DNA from: an uncultured archaeon | GTDB taxonomy: Archaea > Iainarchaeota > Iainarchaeia > Iainarchaeales > DATDZZ01 | Length of the DNA stretch: 13,595 nt | Assembly (NCBI GenBank): GCA_964373795.1 | Contig: CAYJVY010000017.1 | Span: forward strand, 1 to 13,595 | Direction: 5' to 3' | Shown here: one piece after another, positions 1 to 10,096 of the stretch | Layout of the letters: each line of letters starts with the position of its first letter | Numbering within the stretch: position 1 is the stretch's first letter | Program-made: the position numbers and the translations under genes | The notes under the pieces: generated by a model | What the model was told of the DNA's origin: nothing | Databases searched by the model: none | Seen by the model: the letters and a program-made list of their open reading frames with translations, nothing else

Positions 1-2
1 CT

Positions 3-1154
3 TACAATGTTCCAATAAAAATTATTCCAAAATATTCTGAATCAATTCCTTTAAATACTGAGTTCAATATTGCAATTACTATCCTTAATAATGATAATAA
101 TTCTAAAAAAATAACTCTAAATAAAGCAATTTTCTTTCGTTATTCTAATGAAGGGGGATCTGAAGATTCAATTGAAAAACAAATTAATGAAACTAAAAAC
201 GTTGAAGGAAATTCAAGCGAAATATTTAATTTTTCATTTAACTCAGGCAATAAAGAATCAATGACTGCAAATCTTGTATTCACACTAGAAATACCTCATC
301 CAATATATGGAAAAGCGGTCATTCATTTAGAAATATTTCCATTAATTGTTTACGATAAACAAAACGAAGCTAGTTGTGGAAATAAAAAATATAACAAAAA
401 CATGGGGGTGTGTTTTAATGAAATTCTTTATCCAACGCGTAGTGCTTGTTATTCAAATGATGATTGCTTATCTGAAGACTATGTATGCATTGAAAACAGT
501 TGCTTTAGTCAAATCTCAAGATTTTCGCCAAACCAAGAATACAAAGTTGGAGCTTTGCCAATTTTAATTGTCGACAATGAAAATTTGTTTAATGAAATGA
601 AAGATCTCAATATAGCTGAATTTAATAACATTATTAATAAATCCAATAAATGGTTTGAGAATGAAAGAATTTATTGGAATGCTTCAAATGAAAACAAGTT
701 TACAATAAAATATGAGGCGTTAGATTATTGCAGGTTAACAAAAAGTGAATACCTTCAATTAATAAAAAAACATGATAGTGATTTAAATTTTGTAAAAGGT
801 TTAATCGAGTTTTGTAATGTAAACAAATCAGAATACTCAATTGTTGCAGTTCATGAATTTTGGGATGAAAAGCTGTTAACTCAGGATATTTTTGATGAGA
901 GGAATAGAATTGGAGCAATAGGTGCTGCAGGAATTAATTATGGAGACATAATTATTTTTGCATTAGATTATAGTGCGTTAATTCATGAAACTCTTCACAG
1001 TTTTGGAGAAATTGATTTATATCAAAAAAATGGAGTTCATGGATCTAGATTTCAATGGAGAAACTGTAATTTATTTCAAGCGAATTGGATGGAATTTGAA
1101 TTAAATCCACATCTTTGTCCTTTAGAAGCAAAAATAATTGGCTGGAAAGATTAA
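3..1154 (+). CDS. 5'-truncated secreted/surface protein with a C-terminal zincin-like (HExxH) putative metalloprotease domain
   Basis: I read the frame of the 261..1154 ORF codon by codon back to position 3 and found no stop, so the gene enters from upstream of the window. The N-terminal part is beta-rich and Asn/Ser-rich, which suggests an Ig/CARDB-like fold. A Cys-rich linker follows (CGNKK..GVCFNE..SACYSNDDC..YVCIENSC). An HExxH motif, HETLH, is encoded at 984-998 within ALIHETLHSFGEIDLY. The stop is TAA. Confidence 0.6.
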   Translation, partial: YNVPIKIIPKYSESIPLNTEFNIAITILNNDNNSKKITLNKAIFFRYSNEGGSEDSIEKQINETKNVEGNSSEIFNFSFNSGNKESMTANLVFTLEIPHPIYGKAVIHLEIFPLIVYDKQNEASCGNKKYNKNMGVCFNEILYPTRSACYSNDDCLSEDYVCIENSCFSQISRFSPNQEYKVGALPILIVDNENLFNEMKDLNIAEFNNIINKSNKWFENERIYWNASNENKFTIKYEALDYCRLTKSEYLQLIKKHDSDLNFVKGLIEFCNVNKSEYSIVAVHEFWDEKLLTQDIFDERNRIGAIGAAGINYGDIIIFALDYSALIHETLHSFGEIDLYQKNGVHGSRFQWRNCNLFQANWMEFELNPHLCPLEAKIIGWKD

Positions 1155-1771
1155 GGTTTTTTTGCTTCAAAGTCCTTAAAACATTTTTCACATTCAAGTG
1201 AACATTCTTCTTTTTCTGGGTTGCACTTATTGCAAGCAGAAGAACAATCTGCATTCAAATCCTTTTCCACAACACCATTTTTCATTAACGAGTCTTGGTT
1301 AGAAGAAGTAATCATAGTCTCATTTAATGCTGGAGTAGTCCCAAAAAAAGGCTCTCTTTCATTGCTTTTAAAATCACTTGGGGCACTTAAACCTTGATTT
1401 AAATTATAGTTAAGCGAAGGAGAAAACAAAGTTGATCCAAAAAGGAAAAGCATTAAACCAACTAAACCAATTACTGCAAAAGAAAGAATAATCAAAAAAG
1501 AACTTGATTCAGGGGAAGAAATTTTCTTTCCCTTTCTAGTAAGAGAATAATACTTCCATTTTCTTCCTTCATCAATTAATTCAATTAAATCTGATTCAAG
1601 CAAAATATTAAGATGCTGTTTAACTGTAGGAGAACTCATGTCAAGCTTTGAAGCTAGTTCAGTTAAAGTATAATTTCTTTCATTTAATAATTTTAAAATA
1701 GTTGTCCTACTATCTGATGAAAGAGCTTTAAATTCATTTGAAGAAAGTTGAACTTCATCCAATAAAATCAC
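1151..1771 (-). CDS. ArsR/SmtB-family winged-HTH regulator fused to one transmembrane helix and a Cys-rich C-terminal tail
   Basis: The N-terminus FKALSSDSRTTILKLLNERNYTLTELASKLDMSSPTVKQHLNILLESDLIE is a classic ArsR HTH. A hydrophobic segment follows (FLIILSFAVIGLVGLMLFLFGSTLF). The C-terminus reads CSSACNKCNPEKEECSLECEKC, which is two CX3CX2C units. The start is uncertain: GTG at 1769-1771 or TTG three codons later, with no ATG before the HTH. Confidence 0.7.
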   Translation of the reverse strand: MILLDEVQLSSNEFKALSSDSRTTILKLLNERNYTLTELASKLDMSSPTVKQHLNILLESDLIELIDEGRKWKYYSLTRKGKKISSPESSSFLIILSFAVIGLVGLMLFLFGSTLFSPSLNYNLNQGLSAPSDFKSNEREPFFGTTPALNETMITSSNQDSLMKNGVVEKDLNADCSSACNKCNPEKEECSLECEKCFKDFEAKKP

Positions 1772-2014
1772 TTAAACAAAAAAAACTATTGCACTCAAAA
1801 CAACTACAAGAAAAGAAATTGTTCTATTATAATAAGCAATTAATGCCAATAAAGGAGGAAGAACTAAAAACCAATAATTAAAATCAAAGTTATAAAAATA
1901 AATTCCAAAAATCATTCCAATAGTAAATAAAACAAACACAGATGAAGCAAAAACCTGCACAGATTTAGTTATCCTGTTTTCAAGTATTTCAATCCAATTA
2001 TCTACCCTACTCAT
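1772..2014 (-). CDS. small polytopic membrane protein (80 aa, 2-3 TM segments)
   Basis: The ORF has hydrophobic stretches VFASSVFVLFTIGMIFGIYFY, WFLVLPPLLALIAYY and ISFLVVVLSAIVFFV. Its TAA stop (1772-1774) directly abuts, in frame, the GTG of the ArsR gene. Confidence 0.5.
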   Translation of the reverse strand: MSRVDNWIEILENRITKSVQVFASSVFVLFTIGMIFGIYFYNFDFNYWFLVLPPLLALIAYYNRTISFLVVVLSAIVFFV

Positions 2015-2105
2015 TAAGAAATTATGAAATTAAGAGTTTTTAATTTTTTTGATTTAGTTAGTAAGGCATTAATCAAGCAAAATAGGCTTCCAAGCCAAAA
2101 ATTAG

Positions 2106-2429
2106 TCATTTTTTGCTTTTAAGTTTATCCAGTATTTCATGAACTAATTTGTAATCCAAATTCAATTCATTTGCAATAGTAATTGGAACAACCTCTTCAT
2201 GCTTATTGTAATACTTTAAAATTTCTTTTTCAACATTGGAAGAAACCTTTCCAGAAAGCCTTGAAGACTCTCCAAAACCAAGTTTTTCCCTTACAGCAGT
2301 TCGAACAAAATCAGAAACATTCAAAAAATCCCCTCTTAAAACCAAAGAAGTAATTCGATCAAATTCTTGCCTTGTAAGCTTTGTAGCAACAATTCTAGAA
2401 GAGGCATTAGATTTTTTGTTTAAAACCAT
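2106..2429 (-). CDS. ribbon-helix-helix (CopG/Arc-like) DNA-binding protein with a possible C-terminal winged-helix
   Basis: RIVATKLTRQEFDRITSLVLRGDFLNVSDFVRTAVREKL fits the RHH pattern of a beta strand followed by two helices. There is no SD upstream, but there is a TATA-like box at leaderless distance. Confidence 0.6.
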   Translation of the reverse strand: MVLNKKSNASSRIVATKLTRQEFDRITSLVLRGDFLNVSDFVRTAVREKLGFGESSRLSGKVSSNVEKEILKYYNKHEEVVPITIANELNLDYKLVHEILDKLKSKK

Positions 2430-2451
2430 GAGTTAAATATAGTTAACCATG

Positions 2452-2459
2452 TATAAAAA
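2452..2459 (-). promoter_or_regulatory. TATA-like box for the RHH gene (leaderless geometry)
   Basis: On the minus strand the sequence TTTTTATA lies at -30 to -23 relative to the ATG at 2429. No SD lies between them. Confidence 0.35.
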
Positions 2460-2535
2460 TCTTTCTAGTAGTAAAAATTTCGAGGAAGTTTGGTTTACCT
2501 TATTAAACTATGTTAAAAAAAAAGGAGTTAAGGAG

Positions 2536-2730
2536 TTAAGCAAAATCTTTTACTCCTGTAACAAAGGTTTCTGAAAAACGTTTTTTGCAGTCAATTACTC
2601 CTAATAGTTCATATAAATAATTTCTTATAAGTCTAGAGCTACTGCCACTTGAAATTTCAAACAAAATTTGCTGTTTTTCAATCTCTAGTTCTTCTAAAAA
2701 TTTTTCTTGCAAACTTTTTTTACTCCACAT
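2536..2730 (-). CDS. hypothetical small protein (64 aa from the internal ATG)
   Basis: The ORF track starts this gene at 2757. However, the ATG at 2728-2730 (MWSKKSLQEK...) is preceded by GGAGGAG (minus strand, 2736-2742) at SD spacing. I recognise no family. Confidence 0.45.
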   Translation of the reverse strand: MWSKKSLQEKFLEELEIEKQQILFEISSGSSSRLIRNYLYELLGVIDCKKRFSETFVTGVKDFA

Positions 2731-2771
2731 TTTATCTCCTCCTAAAAACTTGAACAATTATCTTTAAGCCA

Positions 2772-2780
2772 TTTTTATAT
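2772..2780. promoter_or_regulatory. A/T-rich TATA-like box in the divergent intergenic region
   Basis: The sequence is TTTTTATAT. For the minus-strand gene (start 2730) it predicts a ~20-nt leader that contains the SD. For the plus-strand gene (ATG 2804) it would be at leaderless distance, but that would exclude the GGAGGAG at 2787-2793. The orientation is therefore ambiguous. Confidence 0.3.
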
Positions 2781-2803
2781 GTTTTCGGAGGAGTTCATTT
2801 CCT

Positions 2804-3115
2804 ATGAAAATTCACTTCGCAATCGACGAATTTTTGTTAATTCTTAATAATCTAATGCAAACCGATTATTGTGGTAAAATGCAGATTATTGAGTCAAATC
2901 ATTGGAAATTAAAAAAGATTCAAAGAACAAATATTGAGAATTACATGATAGAAGAAGTAATTAAAAAAACTAAAAAATTTGAAAAAGACAAAAAATGGAG
3001 TAATGCATTAAATGCAATTAAAAGAATTCGCGAAACGGGAAAGTTATTAAAAGTAGTTTTTCGCTTCATAGGAAAGAATAAAATTAAGTTAATTACTGCA
3101 TATTATTTAGATTAA
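2804..3115 (+). CDS. DUF4258-like putative toxin-type small protein
   Basis: GGAGGAG lies 10 nt upstream of the start. The segment SNHWKLKKIQRTNIENYMIEEVI and the C-terminal KVVFRFIGKNKIKLITAYY resemble the DUF4258 pattern (H-containing helix ... hydrophobic strand ending iTvY). The gene is directly followed by a DUF2283 gene. The assignment is from memory of the family profile, not from a search. Confidence 0.45.
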   Translation: MKIHFAIDEFLLILNNLMQTDYCGKMQIIESNHWKLKKIQRTNIENYMIEEVIKKTKKFEKDKKWSNALNAIKRIRETGKLLKVVFRFIGKNKIKLITAYYLD

Positions 3116-3124
3116 GGGATTTAA

Positions 3125-3337
3125 ATGAAAAAACTTTCATGGTACGATGAACAAGAAGATATTTTTGGAATAAATATCAATGCAAAAAAAAAATACTGGA
3201 AAAGTATCGAATTAAAGAATGGGGTAATAATTGACATTTCAAAAAATGGCCAAATAATTGGTTTTGAAATACCTAATGCAAAAAAAATATTTTCAGGAAA
3301 AGCAGAGAAAATTCTTCAAACAACTAAAAACTTATAA
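3125..3337 (+). CDS. DUF2283 family small protein (antitoxin-like partner)
   Basis: LSWYDEQEDIFGINI...GVIIDISKNGQIIGFEIPNAKKIF matches the DUF2283 signature (YD.e.D.l.i ... d.dG.i.G.Ei.nas). AAGGGA lies 6 nt upstream of the start. The gene starts 9 nt after the preceding gene. Confidence 0.65.
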   Translation: MKKLSWYDEQEDIFGININAKKKYWKSIELKNGVIIDISKNGQIIGFEIPNAKKIFSGKAEKILQTTKNL

Positions 3338-4867
3338 AAATTCTTTTGTTTCTTTTTCGGATTCTTCTTTTGATTCTTCAAACCGTTTAGCGGAATCCTC
3401 TAAAGAAATTTCGTGTTTTGACTCCATTGATTTTCTTTTTCTAACTTTAAAGAAAACAGGATTGCCAACTGCCTCTCCCACAAGCAAGGCTTCTCCTACT
3501 CTTAAAGAGGTTAACATGTCTAAAGAATTTTTGTCAATTGCTTCAGCGCTTTCAGAAATATGTTTCAAGTCATTTGGGTTAGTAATGCGTAAAAAAATAT
3601 TTGTCCCACACTGAGATAAAGTAGTTGTATCTAATTGCACTGGCCTTTGGGAAATCAGACAAAGTGATGCTCCAAATTTTCTTCCTTCTCTTGCAATTGT
3701 TCTAAAAACATGTTTTGAAATGCTTCCTTCTTTTGAAGAAAATTGTGGAATAAAGTTATGGGATTCTTCTAATACAATTAAAAAAGGCGGAATTGATTTT
3801 TGTCTTCTTTCATAAAAAATTTTTGAAGTAAAATAGCTTACAATTATTTGCTTTCTTTTCAAATTAATTGAATCACTTAAATCAACTATTGCTAATTGTC
3901 CTGGCTTAATTAAATCCAAAATATTTGGAGAATCAATGCTTGAAAATAAACGAGTTTCTTCTAAGTCATTTAACCAACTAATTAATGCTCTAGAAGTATT
4001 CTCATTAAGGTCTTCGTCTCTTAAAAGCTCGTTTTTAATGTTAATTAAATCATATGGGCCTAAGCCTTCTCTCATTTCTTTTTGAAGTTTTAAAATAATT
4101 TTACTTAATTCTCTTTTCTGTTGCCCTGAAAGATCTGGAATAAATGAAGCAAAGTTTTGCACTGAAAGTTTTGGCACTCCAATCTTTATTTCTCTTGAAT
4201 GAATTACTCTAGTTTTATTTGAATAATCCGAATACTTTGAATTAGTAATTGGTTCTGCAAAAGACAAGTATTCCCCATGCAAGTCAAATACTAAGACAGC
4301 TATTCTTCCATGCTCTTTTTTTCTATCCAATAATTCTTCAATTAAATCTGCAGTGAAAAAACTTTTTCCATATCCTGATTGAGCTAAAATCGAACAATGT
4401 TTTTGCAACAACCTAGTCATGTTAAGCTTTACTTCTAGATCATGATATTCTACTTTTCCTAAGTTCAAGCCATTGTCATCTAAATGCAAAAATTTTTTCA
4501 AATTCATTGGAGAAGCAAGTCTAACCTTTGTTCCAGGAGAAGGAGGATAAGTAGCTCTTCTAATCACTCCTTCCTTGAACACTCCTAAAGGCTTTGTTTT
4601 AGCAATTAAATACTCCCACTCTCCTACAGGAAATTGTTCAAACAAGTTATGCCCTTTTGATTCAAATTCTTTAACTGATTCAGCTCTTTCAAAATACCTG
4701 TTTGTTTTAATTACGTTAACAATTAATGCAATTAAAGTCCCTTCATTATAATCTAATTCAATAAATTGCCCTCTATGAACTACTCCTGAGTTTACAACAA
4801 AGTTTAACTCGACAGGGGAAGGCCCTTCAAAAGAAGAAACAACTGTTCCAATTTCTTTTTCATTCAT
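3332..4867 (-). CDS. herA: HerA-type hexameric DNA translocase/helicase ATPase (DUF87/FtsK-HerA superfamily)
   Basis: An N-terminal HAS-barrel-like region is present (IGTVVSSFEGPSPVELNFVV). Walker A AQSGYGKS is encoded at 4361-4384; I checked the reverse complement as GCT CAA TCA GGA TAT GGA AAA AGT. Walker B-like FLIVLEESHNF and the conserved LISQRP motif are also present. At 511 aa the length is typical. Confidence 0.9.
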   Translation of the reverse strand: MNEKEIGTVVSSFEGPSPVELNFVVNSGVVHRGQFIELDYNEGTLIALIVNVIKTNRYFERAESVKEFESKGHNLFEQFPVGEWEYLIAKTKPLGVFKEGVIRRATYPPSPGTKVRLASPMNLKKFLHLDDNGLNLGKVEYHDLEVKLNMTRLLQKHCSILAQSGYGKSFFTADLIEELLDRKKEHGRIAVLVFDLHGEYLSFAEPITNSKYSDYSNKTRVIHSREIKIGVPKLSVQNFASFIPDLSGQQKRELSKIILKLQKEMREGLGPYDLINIKNELLRDEDLNENTSRALISWLNDLEETRLFSSIDSPNILDLIKPGQLAIVDLSDSINLKRKQIIVSYFTSKIFYERRQKSIPPFLIVLEESHNFIPQFSSKEGSISKHVFRTIAREGRKFGASLCLISQRPVQLDTTTLSQCGTNIFLRITNPNDLKHISESAEAIDKNSLDMLTSLRVGEALLVGEAVGNPVFFKVRKRKSMESKHEISLEDSAKRFEESKEESEKETKEFL

Positions 4868-4872
4868 TTAAT

Positions 4873-5556
4873 TCAACTCAATGCAATTGCGTTTGACTTA
4901 ATTCGATGTAATTCATTTCTTAAGCCAAATTCTAGGTGAGCTTTTGCTCCAGGCTCTCTTTGAATAAAAGATAAGTTTGCAGAAGCCTTTATTAGTCTTT
5001 CAACAATTTCTTCTGCAGCAGCAAAGTCAACCTCTCGAACAATTTTCATTAAATCTTCTCCAACTTTTTCTAAATCAATTTTTAAATAACGGGTCTCATG
5101 TATTCCATCAAATTGTTCTTCAAAATCTATTCGCTGCGGATGAAAAAAATAATCAAACAAATGTTCATAATGAATATCAACCAATTTTTTTCTTGCCTGC
5201 AATAAATCTATCTGAGCTTTTTTTATTGAATCTTTCACTGAAACCAGTTTTTTTTTCATTACATTTTTTTCACTGCCTTTCAAAAACCTTAAACTATTTT
5301 CAATAGATCTTTTAAGCAAAACCATTTCAGCTAAGTAATCCTTGAATTCATGAAAACCTAGTTTGCCTTCCATAGATAACTCTCTCATTTGCAGAACTCG
5401 TTTCTCTCTTTCAACAAATCCTTCAAAAGCTGCTTTCCGAAAACCTTTAAGTCTTTGAAAAACCTTTATTGCACGCTTTACAAGGCTTCTTGGGTTTTTT
5501 TTACCATGCCTTGGCTTGGACAATAAAGCTTTAATTTTTTGCCTAATCCTTTTCAT
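4873..5556 (-). CDS. hypothetical protein (227 aa), basic N-terminus then helical/coiled-coil, embedded between nurA and herA
   Basis: A strong SD (AAGGAG on the minus strand, 5562-5567) lies 5 nt before the ATG. The TGA stop is only 5 nt before the herA ATG. I recognise no family. Confidence 0.6.
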   Translation of the reverse strand: MKRIRQKIKALLSKPRHGKKNPRSLVKRAIKVFQRLKGFRKAAFEGFVEREKRVLQMRELSMEGKLGFHEFKDYLAEMVLLKRSIENSLRFLKGSEKNVMKKKLVSVKDSIKKAQIDLLQARKKLVDIHYEHLFDYFFHPQRIDFEEQFDGIHETRYLKIDLEKVGEDLMKIVREVDFAAAEEIVERLIKASANLSFIQREPGAKAHLEFGLRNELHRIKSNAIALS

Positions 5557-5605
5557 TCAAACTCCTTCTGAGAATAACATAAATATTTCTTGCATAAAAT
5601 CGCTT

Positions 5606-6730
5606 TTAAAAAGGACGCTTATCCCTTCTTTGAGGCATAAATAAATGGCTTCCAGCTTTATCCAAAATTTTTTCAAAAACAATATCAATTTCTTCAGGCT
5701 TTAATTTAGCTCTTAAATCTGCTTCAATTAAAACAGTTGGAAAAGCATACTCTCTATGAAAAGAACTTAAAGCAAAAACAATTGAAGCAATTTCATTCAC
5801 CTGCTCACCCAGTTCCGTCGACTGTCCTTTATCAGCCATGCTAGCTGCTTCGGCGATGAATTCAACTCTTAAAGGCCTGTCAAATTGAGAAGGCTTTAAA
5901 TAAAACGCATGAATTCTTTCACTCCATTTTGAATCCAAGTCATTCAAGATCGGATGCTGTTTAACATTTGAAGCATACCTGAAAGCAAAACTTCTCTCTC
6001 CTTGCTTTAACAAGTAATCAAGCAAACTTGAATCAAAAGAGTTTTCAATTGCTTCAGAGGAAAGCAATTGCGTTTTCGGTAAAACCTCTTTTTGGATTAT
6101 TCCTTTAAATCTTGTTCCACGAGAATCCTCTACACAAGCAATTAATTTACACTTACTTTTCTCGCTTGCTTGAAATAATTCTTGAAAATCATTTAAAACT
6201 TCGTGATAAAGAGCTGTAATCTTTGAATCATTTCTAGGCTTGTCTGCATGCATTGGAATAATAGAGCCATCCAAGAAAACAAATTCTGGAGAAAATTCTT
6301 TAATTACTTCTCTAGCTAAATTAATTTCTTTTTGCAAGCGATACAAAGATTTACTGCAATTAAATTCATCTCTTTCCAAGGCATTAGTTAAAATAATTGG
6401 TTCGGGGAATTTAAAAAAATTTGGAAAATAATTTGATGAAACAACTTTAGAGTTCTTAAAATCAAATACTGCGGCCATTGCTCGAACAAGAATTAAATCA
6501 ATTGAAGAAAAACTTTTCCCAATAAAACCTGAATCAATTCCAGCAATTCTGGAATTCAAATTCGTTTTTTTCACTTCAGAAATAAATTTTTCTTCAAGTA
6601 ACTCTGAAGAATTAAATTCAAGCAAATTTTTTTTACGCAAAAAATTTAATGAATTTGAATTCTTTTTTCTCTTCTCTTCACTTAACTTAATTGATTCAAC
6701 TGCTTCATTAATTACTTTAGTTAAATTCAT
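5606..6730 (-). CDS. nurA: NurA-type nuclease (375 aa from the corrected start)
   Basis: NurA-like acidic motifs are present: IAGIDSGF, FVFLDGSIIP, ACVEDSRG and VLIEADLRAKL. The ORF track extends the gene to 6862, but those 44 codons lie in the GC island and read as non-protein-like (MLALVSTHETSQPARLRVCVASRLPRETAVECPHRHVSSGVGPC). The ATG at 6728-6730 (MNLTKVINEAV) has AGGAG 11 nt upstream. Confidence 0.85.
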   Translation of the reverse strand: MNLTKVINEAVESIKLSEEKRKKNSNSLNFLRKKNLLEFNSSELLEEKFISEVKKTNLNSRIAGIDSGFIGKSFSSIDLILVRAMAAVFDFKNSKVVSSNYFPNFFKFPEPIILTNALERDEFNCSKSLYRLQKEINLAREVIKEFSPEFVFLDGSIIPMHADKPRNDSKITALYHEVLNDFQELFQASEKSKCKLIACVEDSRGTRFKGIIQKEVLPKTQLLSSEAIENSFDSSLLDYLLKQGERSFAFRYASNVKQHPILNDLDSKWSERIHAFYLKPSQFDRPLRVEFIAEAASMADKGQSTELGEQVNEIASIVFALSSFHREYAFPTVLIEADLRAKLKPEEIDIVFEKILDKAGSHLFMPQRRDKRPF

Positions 6731-6894
6731 ACAAGGTCCAACTCCTGAAGACACATGCCTATGCGGACATTCAACTGCCGTCTCGCGTGGCAAGCGCGAT
6801 GCCACGCAAACTCTCAGCCTCGCCGGCTGCGACGTCTCGTGCGTCGACACAAGGGCCAACATCGCCTTCAGCTTCGCCGGATGAGCGGCGTAAT
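6731..6894 (-). ncRNA. GC-rich island: candidate structured RNA or 5' leader of the nurA operon (identity unknown)
   Basis: G+C is 99/160 over 6731-6890, against 15/70 over 6891-6960 (hand counts). Perfect hairpins are 6785-6792/6800-6807 (8 bp), 6830-6834/6842-6846 (5 bp) and 6875-6879/6886-6890 (5 bp). A long-range helix pairs 6745-6753 with 6863-6871: 6 Watson-Crick pairs, extended to 9 bp by one further G-C pair and two G-U pairs that exist only in the minus-sense RNA. A TATA-like box lies about 26 nt upstream of the island's 5' edge on the minus strand. Confidence 0.4.
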
Positions 6895-6916
6895 AGAAAA
6901 AGAGAATAAAAAGAAA

Positions 6917-6924
6917 TTTATAAA
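6917..6924 (-). promoter_or_regulatory. TATA-like box (TTTATAAA) predicted to start transcription at the edge of the GC island
   Basis: The palindromic TTTATAAA is preceded on the minus strand by the purine-rich AAAAGTA, which is BRE-like. Using the archaeal rule of a TATA centre near -26/-27, the start site falls at about 6892-6896. The G+C-rich sequence begins at 6890. Confidence 0.4.
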
Positions 6925-6948
6925 TACTTTTAAAGCAAATTTCCGGTG

Positions 6949-6959
6949 AAAAAGCAAAA
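6949..6959 (-). terminator. oligo-T tract (TTTTGCTTTTT on the minus strand) just after the stop of the 251-aa gene
   Basis: Archaeal termination commonly uses T-runs. This tract lies 8-18 nt downstream of the TAA at 6967-6969 and upstream of the TATA-like box. Confidence 0.3.
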
Positions 6960-6966
6960 CTTATTC

Positions 6967-7722
6967 TTATTTAAGTTCTTTTTTTACATGAGTTAAATAA
7001 CGAATTTTTTTTAACAAGGTTTGCCCTAAAGAAGGATCTAAAGAAACTCTAGCCGTTTCTCTAACAATAATTGCTTCAACAGTTGAAAAGAAAACTCGTC
7101 TAAGTTCTTCAGAAGAAAGATCTCCTGCCGCAACCAGTGCATCTCCAAGTTCTTCATTAGTTTGTTTAATAAAATCCTTTAAGTCAGGGTCTTGAGCAAA
7201 CCTTGCAGTAGTTGAAGCTGTTTTCGCTTTTTCAACTAATCTACGTGTCTCTACGGGCATTCTTTTTCTTCCAAGATCTCTGGCAATTCTTGAAGTTTCA
7301 CTTCTCTTCTTTGAAAGCACTCTAATTTTTTCAACTTGACTTAATCTTACAGGATCACTCAAAATTCCTCTTAAGTACTGCACACTAAAATCTTTAGTTA
7401 TTACTTCCATTGGATCATCAGTAAGAATGGCTAAATTCTGTAATCTTGTAATTTCATCCCTTAAAGCATCTCTAGTTGAAACTTTTTCAGGAGTAGATAA
7501 AAGTCTGTCTTTAAAAAAATATTCAAACCATTTAGTATAAGTTGGATGCCTTTTAATTTCTTCATCTGAAACTTGTCTTTCTAAAACAGACGCTTTATCA
7601 AAAAGTCCTGCAACTTTTACAGGTTTTTTCTCTGAAGACTTGTCTTTCTTCTTAAAAGGCCTTGCAAGAAAATTAGCTGTATTTCTTAGCCATTGAAATC
7701 TTTTTCGTGAGGGTAAAGGCAT
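6967..7722 (-). CDS. hypothetical protein (251 aa), basic N-terminus, helical, Arg/Glu-rich
   Basis: This is a long ORF with an SD-like AAGGTGA 7 nt upstream of the ATG. I recognise no family. Confidence 0.6.
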   Translation of the reverse strand: MPLPSRKRFQWLRNTANFLARPFKKKDKSSEKKPVKVAGLFDKASVLERQVSDEEIKRHPTYTKWFEYFFKDRLLSTPEKVSTRDALRDEITRLQNLAILTDDPMEVITKDFSVQYLRGILSDPVRLSQVEKIRVLSKKRSETSRIARDLGRKRMPVETRRLVEKAKTASTTARFAQDPDLKDFIKQTNEELGDALVAAGDLSSEELRRVFFSTVEAIIVRETARVSLDPSLGQTLLKKIRYLTHVKKELK

Positions 7723-7865
7723 TAAATATTCACCTTAATAGACTTAAGCCTGAGAAGCAATAAAAACTTATTTCTACATAATGAGTTTGCTTTTTTCATC
7801 GAAAGCCTTTTATATTAAGTAAAACTTATATTTTCAATAAATATTTTTTCAAAGGAGAGAGAAAA

Positions 7866-8237
7866 ATGAATGCAGCAAAATTTATTTTAAAAGAAATTAC
7901 TCAGGACTGGAATTCGCCTTTTAAAACAAAAATTGATGAAACAATTGTAAGTGTTTCAGAAGGAGAAAGTTTTTCAGATGACAAAGAAAAAGGATTCAAG
8001 GTATTTAAATTATTAAAAGTTACTCCTGAAAAAGCTTTAATAGAGTTTTCAAACCAATATACTTTGAAAGGACACGAACATCCAGAAAACAGACAGATAT
8101 GGATTGATAAAAAAGACTTTGCTTCTTTTTCATCTTTATGGAGTCAAAAAGGTTTAACTAAAAAATTAATGTTTAAAGAAATAGATATAGGACAAAAAGT
8201 AAATCTAAGTGAAGCTAGTTCAATTGAAACAACTTAA
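7866..8237 (+). CDS. hypothetical protein (123 aa)
   Basis: AAGGAGAG lies 6-7 nt upstream of the ATG. I recognise no family. Confidence 0.6.
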   Translation: MNAAKFILKEITQDWNSPFKTKIDETIVSVSEGESFSDDKEKGFKVFKLLKVTPEKALIEFSNQYTLKGHEHPENRQIWIDKKDFASFSSLWSQKGLTKKLMFKEIDIGQKVNLSEASSIETT

Positions 8238-9142: not shown

Positions 9143-9961
9143 ATGAAAAAACTAGATAAACAGTTTAAAATCAGTTTTGCTTTACTGATTTTTATGGTTA
9201 AAGAAGGGTTCCTGAAAAGAGTACATAACGTAATTAATAAAGCAGATTTATTGCTTGAAATACTGGATGCAAGGTTTCCAGAGCAAACCAGAAACAATGC
9301 TTTAGAGGAAACTATTTCAAGAAAAGGAAAAAAATTAATTCTTGTGTTAAACAAAGCAGACTTAATTTCAAAAAAAAAATTAATTAAATTAAAGAACCAA
9401 TTAAGTGAATTTACTAGAACTGTTTTTTTATCGGCTAAAGAAAAAAAAGGAATTAATTTATTGAGAAAAGAAATTGGGATTGCTTTAAGTGGTAAAGGAG
9501 TAATTGGAGTAATTGGCTACCCTAATACTGGAAAATCATCCATAATTAATGCTTTAACTGGAAGAAAGGCAGCTCCAACTTCACTTAAGGCTGGATTTAC
9601 TAGAGGAGAACAAAGAATTAGGTTAACTGAAAAAATTCAATTAATTGATACTCCAGGAATAATTCCATTTGAAGAAAAAGATGAATTCAAATTAATTTTA
9701 ACGCTTTCAAAAAACCCTAATCAAATAAGTGATGCAGAGTATTGCGCAGAAAAATTAATTCAATTACTTTTACAAGACAATGCAAAAGAATTAGAAAAAG
9801 TTTACGGAGTAAAAATTTCCAGTGAAATAAATACAGAAAAAATATTAGAAGAAATTGCTTTAAAGAAAAACAAGTTAATTAAAGGAGGCTTACCAGACAT
9901 TCAAAATGCATCCATTCAAGTCTTAATGGATTACCAAAAAGGAAAATTAAAACTATTTTAA
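9143..9961 (+). CDS. circularly permuted GTPase of the YlqF/YawG (RbgA/Nug-like ribosome-biogenesis) family
   Basis: The GTPase motifs are in permuted order: G4 LNKADL, then G1 GYPNTGKSS, then G3 DTPGI. LLEILDARFP precedes G4, as in YlqF. The start is uncertain; the ATG at 9194 (MVKEGFLKRV...) gives a more typical N-terminus than 9143. Confidence 0.85.
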   Translation: MKKLDKQFKISFALLIFMVKEGFLKRVHNVINKADLLLEILDARFPEQTRNNALEETISRKGKKLILVLNKADLISKKKLIKLKNQLSEFTRTVFLSAKEKKGINLLRKEIGIALSGKGVIGVIGYPNTGKSSIINALTGRKAAPTSLKAGFTRGEQRIRLTEKIQLIDTPGIIPFEEKDEFKLILTLSKNPNQISDAEYCAEKLIQLLLQDNAKELEKVYGVKISSEINTEKILEEIALKKNKLIKGGLPDIQNASIQVLMDYQKGKLKLF

Positions 9962-9979: not shown

Positions 9980-9998
9980 CCTGGTGCCTAAAAAATGT
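9980..9998. repeat. direct repeat copy 1 (CCTGGTGCCTAAAAAATGT)
   Basis: This 19-mer is identical to 10027-10045. It lies in the intergenic region after the GTPase gene. Confidence 0.85.
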
Positions 9999-10026
9999 CT
10001 ATTTTTTCCCTCTGAGAATTTGTTTT

Positions 10027-10045
10027 CCTGGTGCCTAAAAAATGT
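10027..10045. repeat. direct repeat copy 2 (CCTGGTGCCTAAAAAATGT)
   Basis: This 19-mer is identical to 9980-9998. The copies are 47 nt apart start to start, and this one lies about 55 nt upstream of the TATA-like box at 10097-10105. Confidence 0.85.
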
Positions 10046-10096
10046 GTTTTGTTTCACGTGCAACATTAAAAGAATTGAAAGTAATTAGCAGCAAAA

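Follow-up and report, generated by a model that had tools for sequence, protein, structure and literature searches.

Gene content of the window and the start of nurA

The stretch of DNA analysed here, hereafter the window, is 13,595 nt long, archaeal, and carries genes coding for NurA (PF09376), HerA (DUF87/PF01935), PTH2, Hjc and an ArsR-type regulator. The NurA homologues whose source is named are mostly labelled Candidatus Diapherotrites, a DPANN lineage, and the best match other than the protein itself shows 61% identity. The nurA gene lies on the minus strand at 5606-6730 and codes for a protein of 374 amino acids that begins with the ATG at 6728-6730, as judged from the Pfam NurA match (3e-13) and from the starts of its homologues. 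The nurA ORF is intact and of full length.

Two longer versions of the gene have been proposed, an ORF of 418 amino acids that begins at an in-frame upstream ATG (6860-6862, minus strand) and the model of 399 amino acids in the public record, which starts at the GTG at 6803-6805. Alignment of the NurA homologues (363-372 aa) revealed that all start at the residue equivalent to MNLTKVINEA and that they cover just 89% of the 418-aa ORF, none of them carrying an N-terminal extension. Since the homologues begin at the equivalent residue and cover 89% of the ORF, ATG 6730 is most probably the true nurA start and the upstream ATG is spurious or uncertain. The 44-codon extension has a GC content of 0.61, 0.59 and 0.59 at the first, second and third codon positions, unlike any native gene (native GC3 about 0.20). 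Judged from the sequences, both the 418-aa ORF and the public 399-aa model appear to over-extend NurA, and the view taken in a preliminary description of this DNA that the long N-terminus is a mis-call is borne out by the homologue starts. For annotation, NurA should be read from ATG 6730 and both models need shortening.

Composition of the GC-rich island

Immediately upstream of the nurA start lies a GC-rich island. Direct counts gave 99 G+C in 160 nt for positions 6731-6890, 73 in 110 for positions 6781-6890 and 15 in 70 for the adjoining positions 6891-6960, which reproduces exactly the counts in the preliminary description. The window as a whole contains 30.0% GC. Among all segments of 160 nt (mean 30.1%, SD 4.8%) the highest value, 61.9%, is that of positions 6732-6891, while the runner-up anywhere in the stretch reaches 43.8%; the island thus lies about 6.6 SD above the mean. 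Native genes show GC3 values of 13-41% with a mean of 20%, intergenic DNA other than the island contains 26% GC, and the composition steps at the edges of the island are abrupt. The anomaly in composition is real and far beyond chance.

The nurA promoter and its comparison with relatives

The nurA loci of five related Diapherotrites (L001, L004, L005, L009 and L010), whose NurA proteins are 53-61% identical, were compared with that of the window. All five carry a TATA box 24-27 nt upstream of the nurA ATG. A box with the sequence TCACCGG(A/C)AA is found about 12-14 nt upstream of the TATA box in three of the relatives, L001 carries the variant GCACTGGAAA at the same position and L009 shows no clear match; a CACCGGAAA-type box is found in four of the five. 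The common layout of the nurA promoter in the relatives is a TTTCACCGGAAA box followed by a TATA box and the ATG. Archaeal TATA boxes are centred near -26, and the spacing of 24-27 nt between TATA box and ATG indicates that the promoters of the relatives have the geometry of leaderless mRNAs.

In the window the TATA box TTTATAAA (6917-6924, minus strand) aligns with the TATA boxes of all five relatives, and the conserved box TTCACCGGAAA (6940-6950, minus strand), common to the nurA promoters of the relatives, lies upstream of it and is a candidate regulator site. The TATA box had been described as belonging to the island itself; since it and the TTTCACCGGAAA box are also conserved in relatives that lack the island, the alignment shows it to be nurA's own promoter element and not one brought by the island. 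The order in the window is the same box, the TATA box, 26 nt, the island and the ATG, so that the island is indeed flanked by the TATA box on one side and the true start of nurA on the other, as had been claimed.

Removal of positions 6732-6890 (159 nt) and of one TA leaves TTTATAAA, 25 nt and the ATG, an arrangement colinear with that of the relatives, and only once the 159-nt insert is removed does the window match the leaderless-type promoter pattern of Diapherotrites nurA genes. The island is absent from all five related loci. Because its deletion restores both the spacing and the colinearity of the relatives, the island is best regarded as a lineage-specific insertion at the nurA start. 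The insert, 159 nt with 62% GC, is placed at 6732-6890 on the minus strand by its composition, by the promoter comparison and by independent assemblies, with borders uncertain by about 2 nt because each junction has a TA (6891-6892 and 6730-6731). The predicted transcription start is at 6891-6895 on the minus strand, about 26 nt past the centre of the TATA box, a placement that follows from archaeal promoter geometry and from the alignment with the relatives, whose ATG falls at the equivalent position.

Tests for a structured RNA

The preliminary description had proposed that the island is a structured RNA, either a regulatory leader of nurA or an independent small RNA. A search of Rfam 15, whose coverage included tRNA, SRP RNA, RNase P RNA, C/D and H/ACA RNAs, riboswitches and IS-associated RNAs, returned no family at its gathering score with either the whole window or the island alone (matches listed up to E = 10), and ARAGORN detected no tRNA or tmRNA. 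The best island match was to chrB-a (RF03078); the aligned part, positions 6754-6810 of the minus strand, consists of a hairpin and, after it, CGAG-CG-CAG..GAA and CAUG. This match scored 22.4 bits against a gathering score of 43.9, with E = 3.2 over the whole window and E = 0.06 when only 251 nt were searched. It differs from the family in that a 33-nt part of the model is missing and in that the motif belongs upstream of bacterial chrB genes. Membership in chrB-a was rejected on the score, the E value for the whole window and the missing 33 nt.

The helices listed in the preliminary description do exist. One is a perfect 8-bp inverted repeat, GCGTGGCA-N7-TGCCACGC, located by a sequence repeat search at 6785-6807, the only one that is mildly unusual, as 20 of 1000 dinucleotide shuffles reach 8 bp. 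Another, pairing 6863-6871 with 6745-6753, is present in the centroid fold and overlaps the first two bases of an AGGAG. This AGGAG (6742-6746, minus strand), noted on reading the sequence, is Shine-Dalgarno-like; the insert carries it at its 3' end, and the nurA ATG follows 11 nt further on. The RNA of nurA sense folds with a minimum free energy of -65 kcal/mol versus -62.3 +/- 3.7 for dinucleotide shuffles (z = -0.73), and the plus strand gave z = -0.39; on these z-scores excess folding was rejected. The probability that the AGGAG is unpaired was 0.39, versus 0.42 +/- 0.19 with shuffled leaders. A designed occlusion of the Shine-Dalgarno motif was rejected, the accessibility being the same as with shuffled leaders.

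If the insert were an archaeal BHB intron, its removal by splicing would give back a leaderless mRNA. Positions 6870-6915 were scanned against 6700-6760 for two 3-nt bulges with a 4-bp helix between them and flanking helices bridging both borders; no motif was found, the mean for shuffled sequences being 0.64, and a BHB intron was rejected. On reading the sequence, no oligo-T terminator was seen from the predicted start up to nurA, and the only promoter was that of nurA. As an independent small RNA would thus have neither a promoter but nurA's nor a T-run terminator before nurA, the earlier suggestion of such an RNA is unlikely to hold.

One alternative is a functional cis-acting leader, in which the GC-rich 5' UTR would fold into a multi-branch structure and gate nurA translation according to temperature or to the presence of a ligand or a protein, for instance by blocking access to the AGGAG. 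The position and sense of the island suit a 5' UTR, the helix of the centroid fold touches the AGGAG, and the 8-bp hairpin and the sub-threshold chrB-a match (E = 0.06 over 251 nt) lend it further support; against it, folding and AGGAG accessibility are those of shuffled sequences, Rfam gave no family at threshold, the chrB-a match falls to E = 3.2 over the whole window, and the five related promoters, leaderless in geometry, lack the element. The preliminary description had itself named absence from related nurA loci as a refutation of its reading; the element was absent from all five, and by that standard the idea is refuted. No homologue of the island was found in any collection searched, hence no alignment was available for covariation, a further point against this alternative. 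We regard a functional leader of this kind as unlikely. The part of the earlier leader idea that survives is the expectation that transcription in the sense of nurA includes the island and makes it a leader; the riboswitch or thermosensor that had been suggested is unsupported. We found no evidence for a structured RNA, a riboswitch or a thermosensor, and the structured-RNA reading is supported neither by the Rfam and ARAGORN results, nor by the folding and accessibility values, nor by the relatives.

Searches for an origin and for features of mobile elements

BLASTN searches of the insert against plasmids, phages and E. coli genomes returned nothing significant. Exact k-mer scans of a metagenome collection, using a 25-mer that crosses the nurA junction and a 20-mer inside the island, gave no match, and neither did exact k-mer scans of a viral collection. 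The 23-mer of the hairpin had one exact match among genomes, in an Acidobacteria MAG contig; the flanks showed no similarity and no Rfam motif was shared, and the match was treated as coincidence and not as a relative, given the dissimilar flanks. A near-identical donor from a high-GC organism, which the preliminary description had considered, was found neither by BLASTN against plasmids, phages and E. coli nor by protein searches.

The sequence TGGCAT-N5-TTGC in the hairpin resembles a bacterial -24/-12 (sigma-54) promoter. To our knowledge archaea have no sigma-54, and a promoter of this type was rejected for that reason; the resemblance is at most a hint of bacterial origin. An integron attC site was also rejected, since the two GTTGG(C/A)C motifs are direct and not inverted repeats.

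The insert could be one copy of a non-autonomous, GC-rich mobile element with hairpins that belongs to this lineage and inserted into a TA or TTAC sequence where the promoter region was melted, and such an element would be likened to mitochondrial GC clusters, Rickettsia palindromic elements and the palindrome-associated elements derived from IS200/IS605. In keeping with this, the insertion is precise, each border having a TA and a TTAC directly adjoining the insert on its 5' side, the insert contains several short GC-rich palindromes and internal repeats, and it is GC-rich in an AT-rich genome, as are the GC clusters of yeast mitochondria (PMC4478555). The 2-nt match at the borders is, however, expected often in AT-rich DNA and is weak as a duplication, no terminal inverted repeats of the kind by which a MITE is recognised join the insert ends (CGCCGCTCATCC... 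and ...GGAGTTGGACCTTG), and no tandem repeats were found in the insert. No second copy was present in the window together with an overlapping contig from another assembly (L007, described below), about 17 kb of genome in all, and the metagenome, viral and genome collections held no exact k-mer match except the unrelated 23-mer. A mobile element is therefore an improbable explanation on present evidence. What speaks for a foreign origin of the insert is its composition, neither a donor nor a second copy having been found.

Internal sequence patterns and coding potential

A repeat search identified two copies of a direct repeat, TCAGCTTCGCCGGATG at 6868-6883 and TCAGCCTCGCCGGCTG at 6814-6829, which point to a degenerate repeat unit about 54 nt long, with 57% identity between the two units at an offset of 54 nt. 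A 13-nt direct repeat with at most one mismatch, 54 nt apart, was obtained in 3 of 1000 shuffles. The sub-segment 6773-6890 is 3-base-periodic, with G enriched in one phase and C in another (chi-square p = 0.0025), the observed value being reached by 7 of 5000 shuffles, and the best self-similarity offsets within the insert (54, 12, 45, 33 and 9) are all multiples of 3. The repeat, the hairpin and the periodicity indicate that the insert sequence is non-random and leave room for a former or present function.

The periodicity and the offsets suggested that the insert might be a fragment of a protein-coding gene of a higher-GC organism, possibly serving now as a 44-residue N-terminal extension of NurA. 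At 159 nt the insert is 53 codons long, and the nurA frame runs open through it from an ATG at 6862; by a rough estimate the chance of a length that is a multiple of 3 together with an open frame is about 0.07, which is suggestive only, and the in-frame length and open frame would fit a translated extension equally well. Protein searches argue otherwise. When all six frames were compared with 5.8 billion proteins, the sole match was the gene model of the window itself, and a second protein query with the two best minus-strand frames, the nurA frame and the G-first frame, returned nothing. A plus-strand frame with 79% GC3, compared with 1.84 billion representatives, matched ankyrin-repeat proteins only, with E values down to 9e-14; these matches were rejected as summation artefacts, each being composed of 10-24 stretches with single stretches scoring from -4 to +10.5 bits. 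Pfam searches in all frames gave no significant family, the sole row being LCE6A at E = 0.053, below the cut-off.

Codon usage was scored with a model built from a single 69%-GC genome, and with this model the best frame reached a log-odds of -4.8 bits, a value matched by 598 of 2000 shuffles, while true coding pieces scored +24 +/- 12. As already stated, the homologous NurA proteins have no such extension. The preliminary description had offered foreign coding DNA as an alternative, which comes nearer to the present findings, though only in part: codon-like 3-base periodicity is present, yet no protein or DNA donor was found. An origin as a coding fragment is possible but is unsupported by the protein searches or by codon usage, and we consider it doubtful.

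Assembly support for the junctions

The organism is found in at least three sequencing runs, for which there are independent Logan assemblies. Contig L007, 10.3 kb long and from run ERR3478686, matches window positions 1-6843 with 100% identity and extends from herA through nurA, over the 6730/6731 junction and 112 nt into the island, while contig L008 (run ERR4904392, 1.0 kb) is 100% identical to positions 6818-7825 and covers ORF251, the promoter and the 6890/6891 junction, reaching 73 nt into the island. Positions 6818-6843 are spanned by the public contig only; L007 and L008, derived from different runs, overlap there by 26 nt. Other Logan contigs of the region are also short (L011 and L012, 1.4 kb each), and since they are short everywhere, the contig ends inside the island fit low coverage and not a branch point. 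Each of the two junctions thus recurs in an assembly other than the deposited one, and the island is not an assembly artefact.

An assembly chimera, in which GC-rich reads of another organism were spliced into the archaeal contig, had been put forward earlier and might be read into the abrupt change of composition and into the ends of both Logan contigs within the island (6843 in L007, 6818 in L008), but it is contradicted by the 100% identity of each junction in contigs from a different assembler and different runs, and chimeras do not look like a double breakpoint after which the sequence takes up again precisely at the ATG of nurA, so that we consider it very improbable.

Interpretation and expression of nurA

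The reading that we favour, with a probability of about 0.6, is that the island is a real, lineage-specific, orphan GC-rich insertion of 159 bp at an ancestrally leaderless nurA start, which now forms a passive leader. About 159 bp of non-native DNA would have been inserted where, in the relatives, the nurA transcription start and the start codon coincide. Transcription from the unchanged nurA promoter would then begin at the edge of the insert, and the nurA mRNA would have a 5' leader about 160 nt long. The native ATG at 6730 most likely remains the start of NurA translation, presumably by means of the insert-borne AGGAG, and initiation at the in-frame ATG at 6862, which would add 44 residues, is less likely. 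Several other genes of the window have AGGAG, GGAGG or GGTGA 5-10 nt before the ATG, and other genes of the same genome have a TATA box at -28 to -30; from these two kinds of genes it appears that the organism uses both modes of initiation.

The insert shows a CpG observed/expected ratio of 1.25 and a TA observed/expected ratio of 0.18. Together with the high GC content these ratios argue that it has probably spent a short time under the AT-biased mutation of the host, and suggest that its GC and CpG have not yet decayed toward the 26-30% GC of the host; as an alternative to recency, selection could keep the GC content of the insert high. Most likely the insert is recently acquired passenger DNA that now forms the 5' leader, and it may have originated as filler at a repaired break or be what is left of some mobile or foreign element. 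No function of its own can be demonstrated for it, and we saw no sign of an effect beyond its being tolerated.

A bolder proposal, to which we give little credence, is that the island represents, for DPANN archaea, either a GC-rich insertion element of which no copy had been recognised before or a regulatory leader that evolved recently. If it were true, the insert would have supplied its own Shine-Dalgarno motif and switched nurA from leaderless to leadered expression, and the 54-nt repeats and palindromes would be functional, either for mobility or for protein binding.

Under the favoured reading of a passive, recently acquired leader, the locus would be a natural case, and a single one, in which a leaderless archaeal gene gained a leader that is about 160 nt long and contains a Shine-Dalgarno motif. 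Given access to the organism or to a reporter system, such a natural switch could serve for studying the tolerance of archaeal translation initiation. The TTTCACCGGAAA box is in addition a testable candidate regulator site of the nurA-herA repair genes. As to method, the comparison of the promoter with those of relatives quickly settled the question.

Comparison with known systems

Klein, Misulovin and Eddy reportedly found, in 2002, ncRNA genes through G+C peaks in AT-rich hyperthermophilic archaea, and the Hgc families of Rfam are of this kind. The island resembles such genes in being a sharp G+C peak in an AT-rich archaeal genome, the heuristic on which the preliminary description relied. 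RNAs of the Klein type are, however, conserved between relatives and have a promoter and a terminator of their own, whereas the relatives lack the island, which is part of the transcription unit of nurA, matched no Rfam model and folds no better than shuffled sequences. Its lack of conservation and its place within that transcription unit exclude it from the class of ncRNAs recognised as GC peaks. A G+C peak alone is no indicator of a structured RNA gene in mesophilic AT-rich DPANN genomes.

Rickettsia palindromic elements (RPE), reported by Ogata et al. in 2000, are said to be inserts of 100-150 nt that lie in frame at or in genes without destroying them. The island is similar in its length of 159 nt (53 codons) and in leaving the nurA frame open. 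An RPE is one long palindrome and belongs to a multi-copy family recognisable by sequence, and neither feature was found for the island.

The GC clusters of yeast mitochondria, for example GC42, are multi-copy, hairpin-forming sequences of about 42 bp flanked by direct repeats of 2-3 nt, AG or ACT (PMC4478555). Like the island they are GC-rich, hairpin-forming DNA in a very AT-rich genome and are mostly intergenic (PMC4478555). They are mitochondrial, whereas the host DNA of the island is an archaeal chromosome, and they consist of about 40 bp with one hairpin in many near-identical copies, whereas the island has 159 nt and several unrelated palindromes and is so far single-copy.

The remaining parallel is with filler or captured DNA at repaired double-strand breaks and with small horizontally acquired fragments. 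No donor has been found for the island and the mechanism is hypothetical in this lineage. Such fragments are single-copy and show microhomology of 1-2 nt at their junctions, to which the island, so far single-copy and with TA at both borders, is comparable, and filler DNA and the island are alike in having a composition foreign to the host and in needing no function.

Conserved box upstream of nurA

Comparison of the window with the nurA loci of five related Diapherotrites revealed that a conserved box, TTTCACCGGAAA(T), precedes the nurA TATA box by about 12-14 nt, both in the window (6940-6950, minus strand) and in four of the five relatives. The box is found at positions 4440-4449 in locus L004, 274-283 in L005 and 1301-1310 in L010, while L001 carries the variant CACTGGAAA, about 55 nt ahead of the nurA ATG. 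A second occurrence of the box core was identified in L010 directly past herA (4041-4050), and a second copy with one mismatch was found in the window at 9816-9826; two matches were observed in the window as against 0.22 expected. The box is a candidate regulator-binding site for the nurA-herA repair genes.

The preliminary description had regarded the long N-terminus of NurA as mis-read from the GC-rich island, and the homologues bear this out. The public-record protein P0001 (399 aa) starts at the GTG at 6805 (codon 6803-6805), inside the island, and the longest nurA reading frame (418 aa) at the ATG at 6862 (codon 6860-6862); compared with all homologues, both models are too long at the N-terminus, and the annotated start of NurA should be moved to 6730.

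Genes flanking nurA

The region upstream of nurA seems to be a variable spot. In the window two orphan genes, ORF251 (6967-7722, minus strand) and ORF123 (7866-8237, plus strand), lie between PTH2 and nurA, and neither has a match in Pfam, NCBIfam or PHROGs. PTH2 and nurA are divergent neighbours in L001 and L005, and the gap between them in L010 holds only one ORF of 107 aa. Since the GC3 of ORF251 and ORF123 (0.15-0.16) is at the native level, these genes are not recent imports, unlike the island. A tRNA-like sequence, read by eye, is located directly 5' of the nurA promoter in L004 (about 4310-4385), which shows that the DNA 5' of the box and TATA box varies by lineage while the promoter core is kept.

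Between nurA and herA the window carries ORF227 (227 aa; 4873-5556, minus strand), which has no family match and is preceded by a good AGGAG 5 nt ahead of its ATG. In L010 herA directly follows nurA, and in L001 a 35-aa ORF follows nurA; ORF227 could be a NurA-HerA partner particular to this lineage. Antisense within ORF227 (5269-5332, plus strand) there is also a sub-threshold Rfam match to RAGATH-27, which scores 30.7 bits (E = 0.82) where the gathering score is 76.1 and probably reflects AT-rich background noise.

Repeated and palindromic sequences

Two 29-nt direct repeats (CCTGGTGCCTAAAAAATGTNT...TTTC; 9980-10008 and 10027-10055), 90% identical and 47 nt apart, occupy the intergenic region between a GTPase gene and a CARDB-like gene, adjoining a weak Rfam CRISPR-DR27 match at 10058-10081, whose 23.8 bits fall below the gathering score of 35.

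Within the island, the 23-nt palindrome GCGTGGCAAGCGCGATGCCACGC (6785-6807) is identical to positions 5277-5299 of L006, which lie in a divergent intergenic region of an Acidobacteria MAG (JAFDVO010000009); the flanks of the two copies show no similarity. Read in the nurA sense, the palindrome gives TGGCAT-N5-TTGC, which resembles the -24/-12 consensus of bacterial sigma-54 promoters; this may be a hint of bacterial, non-coding ancestry, or else a coincidence.
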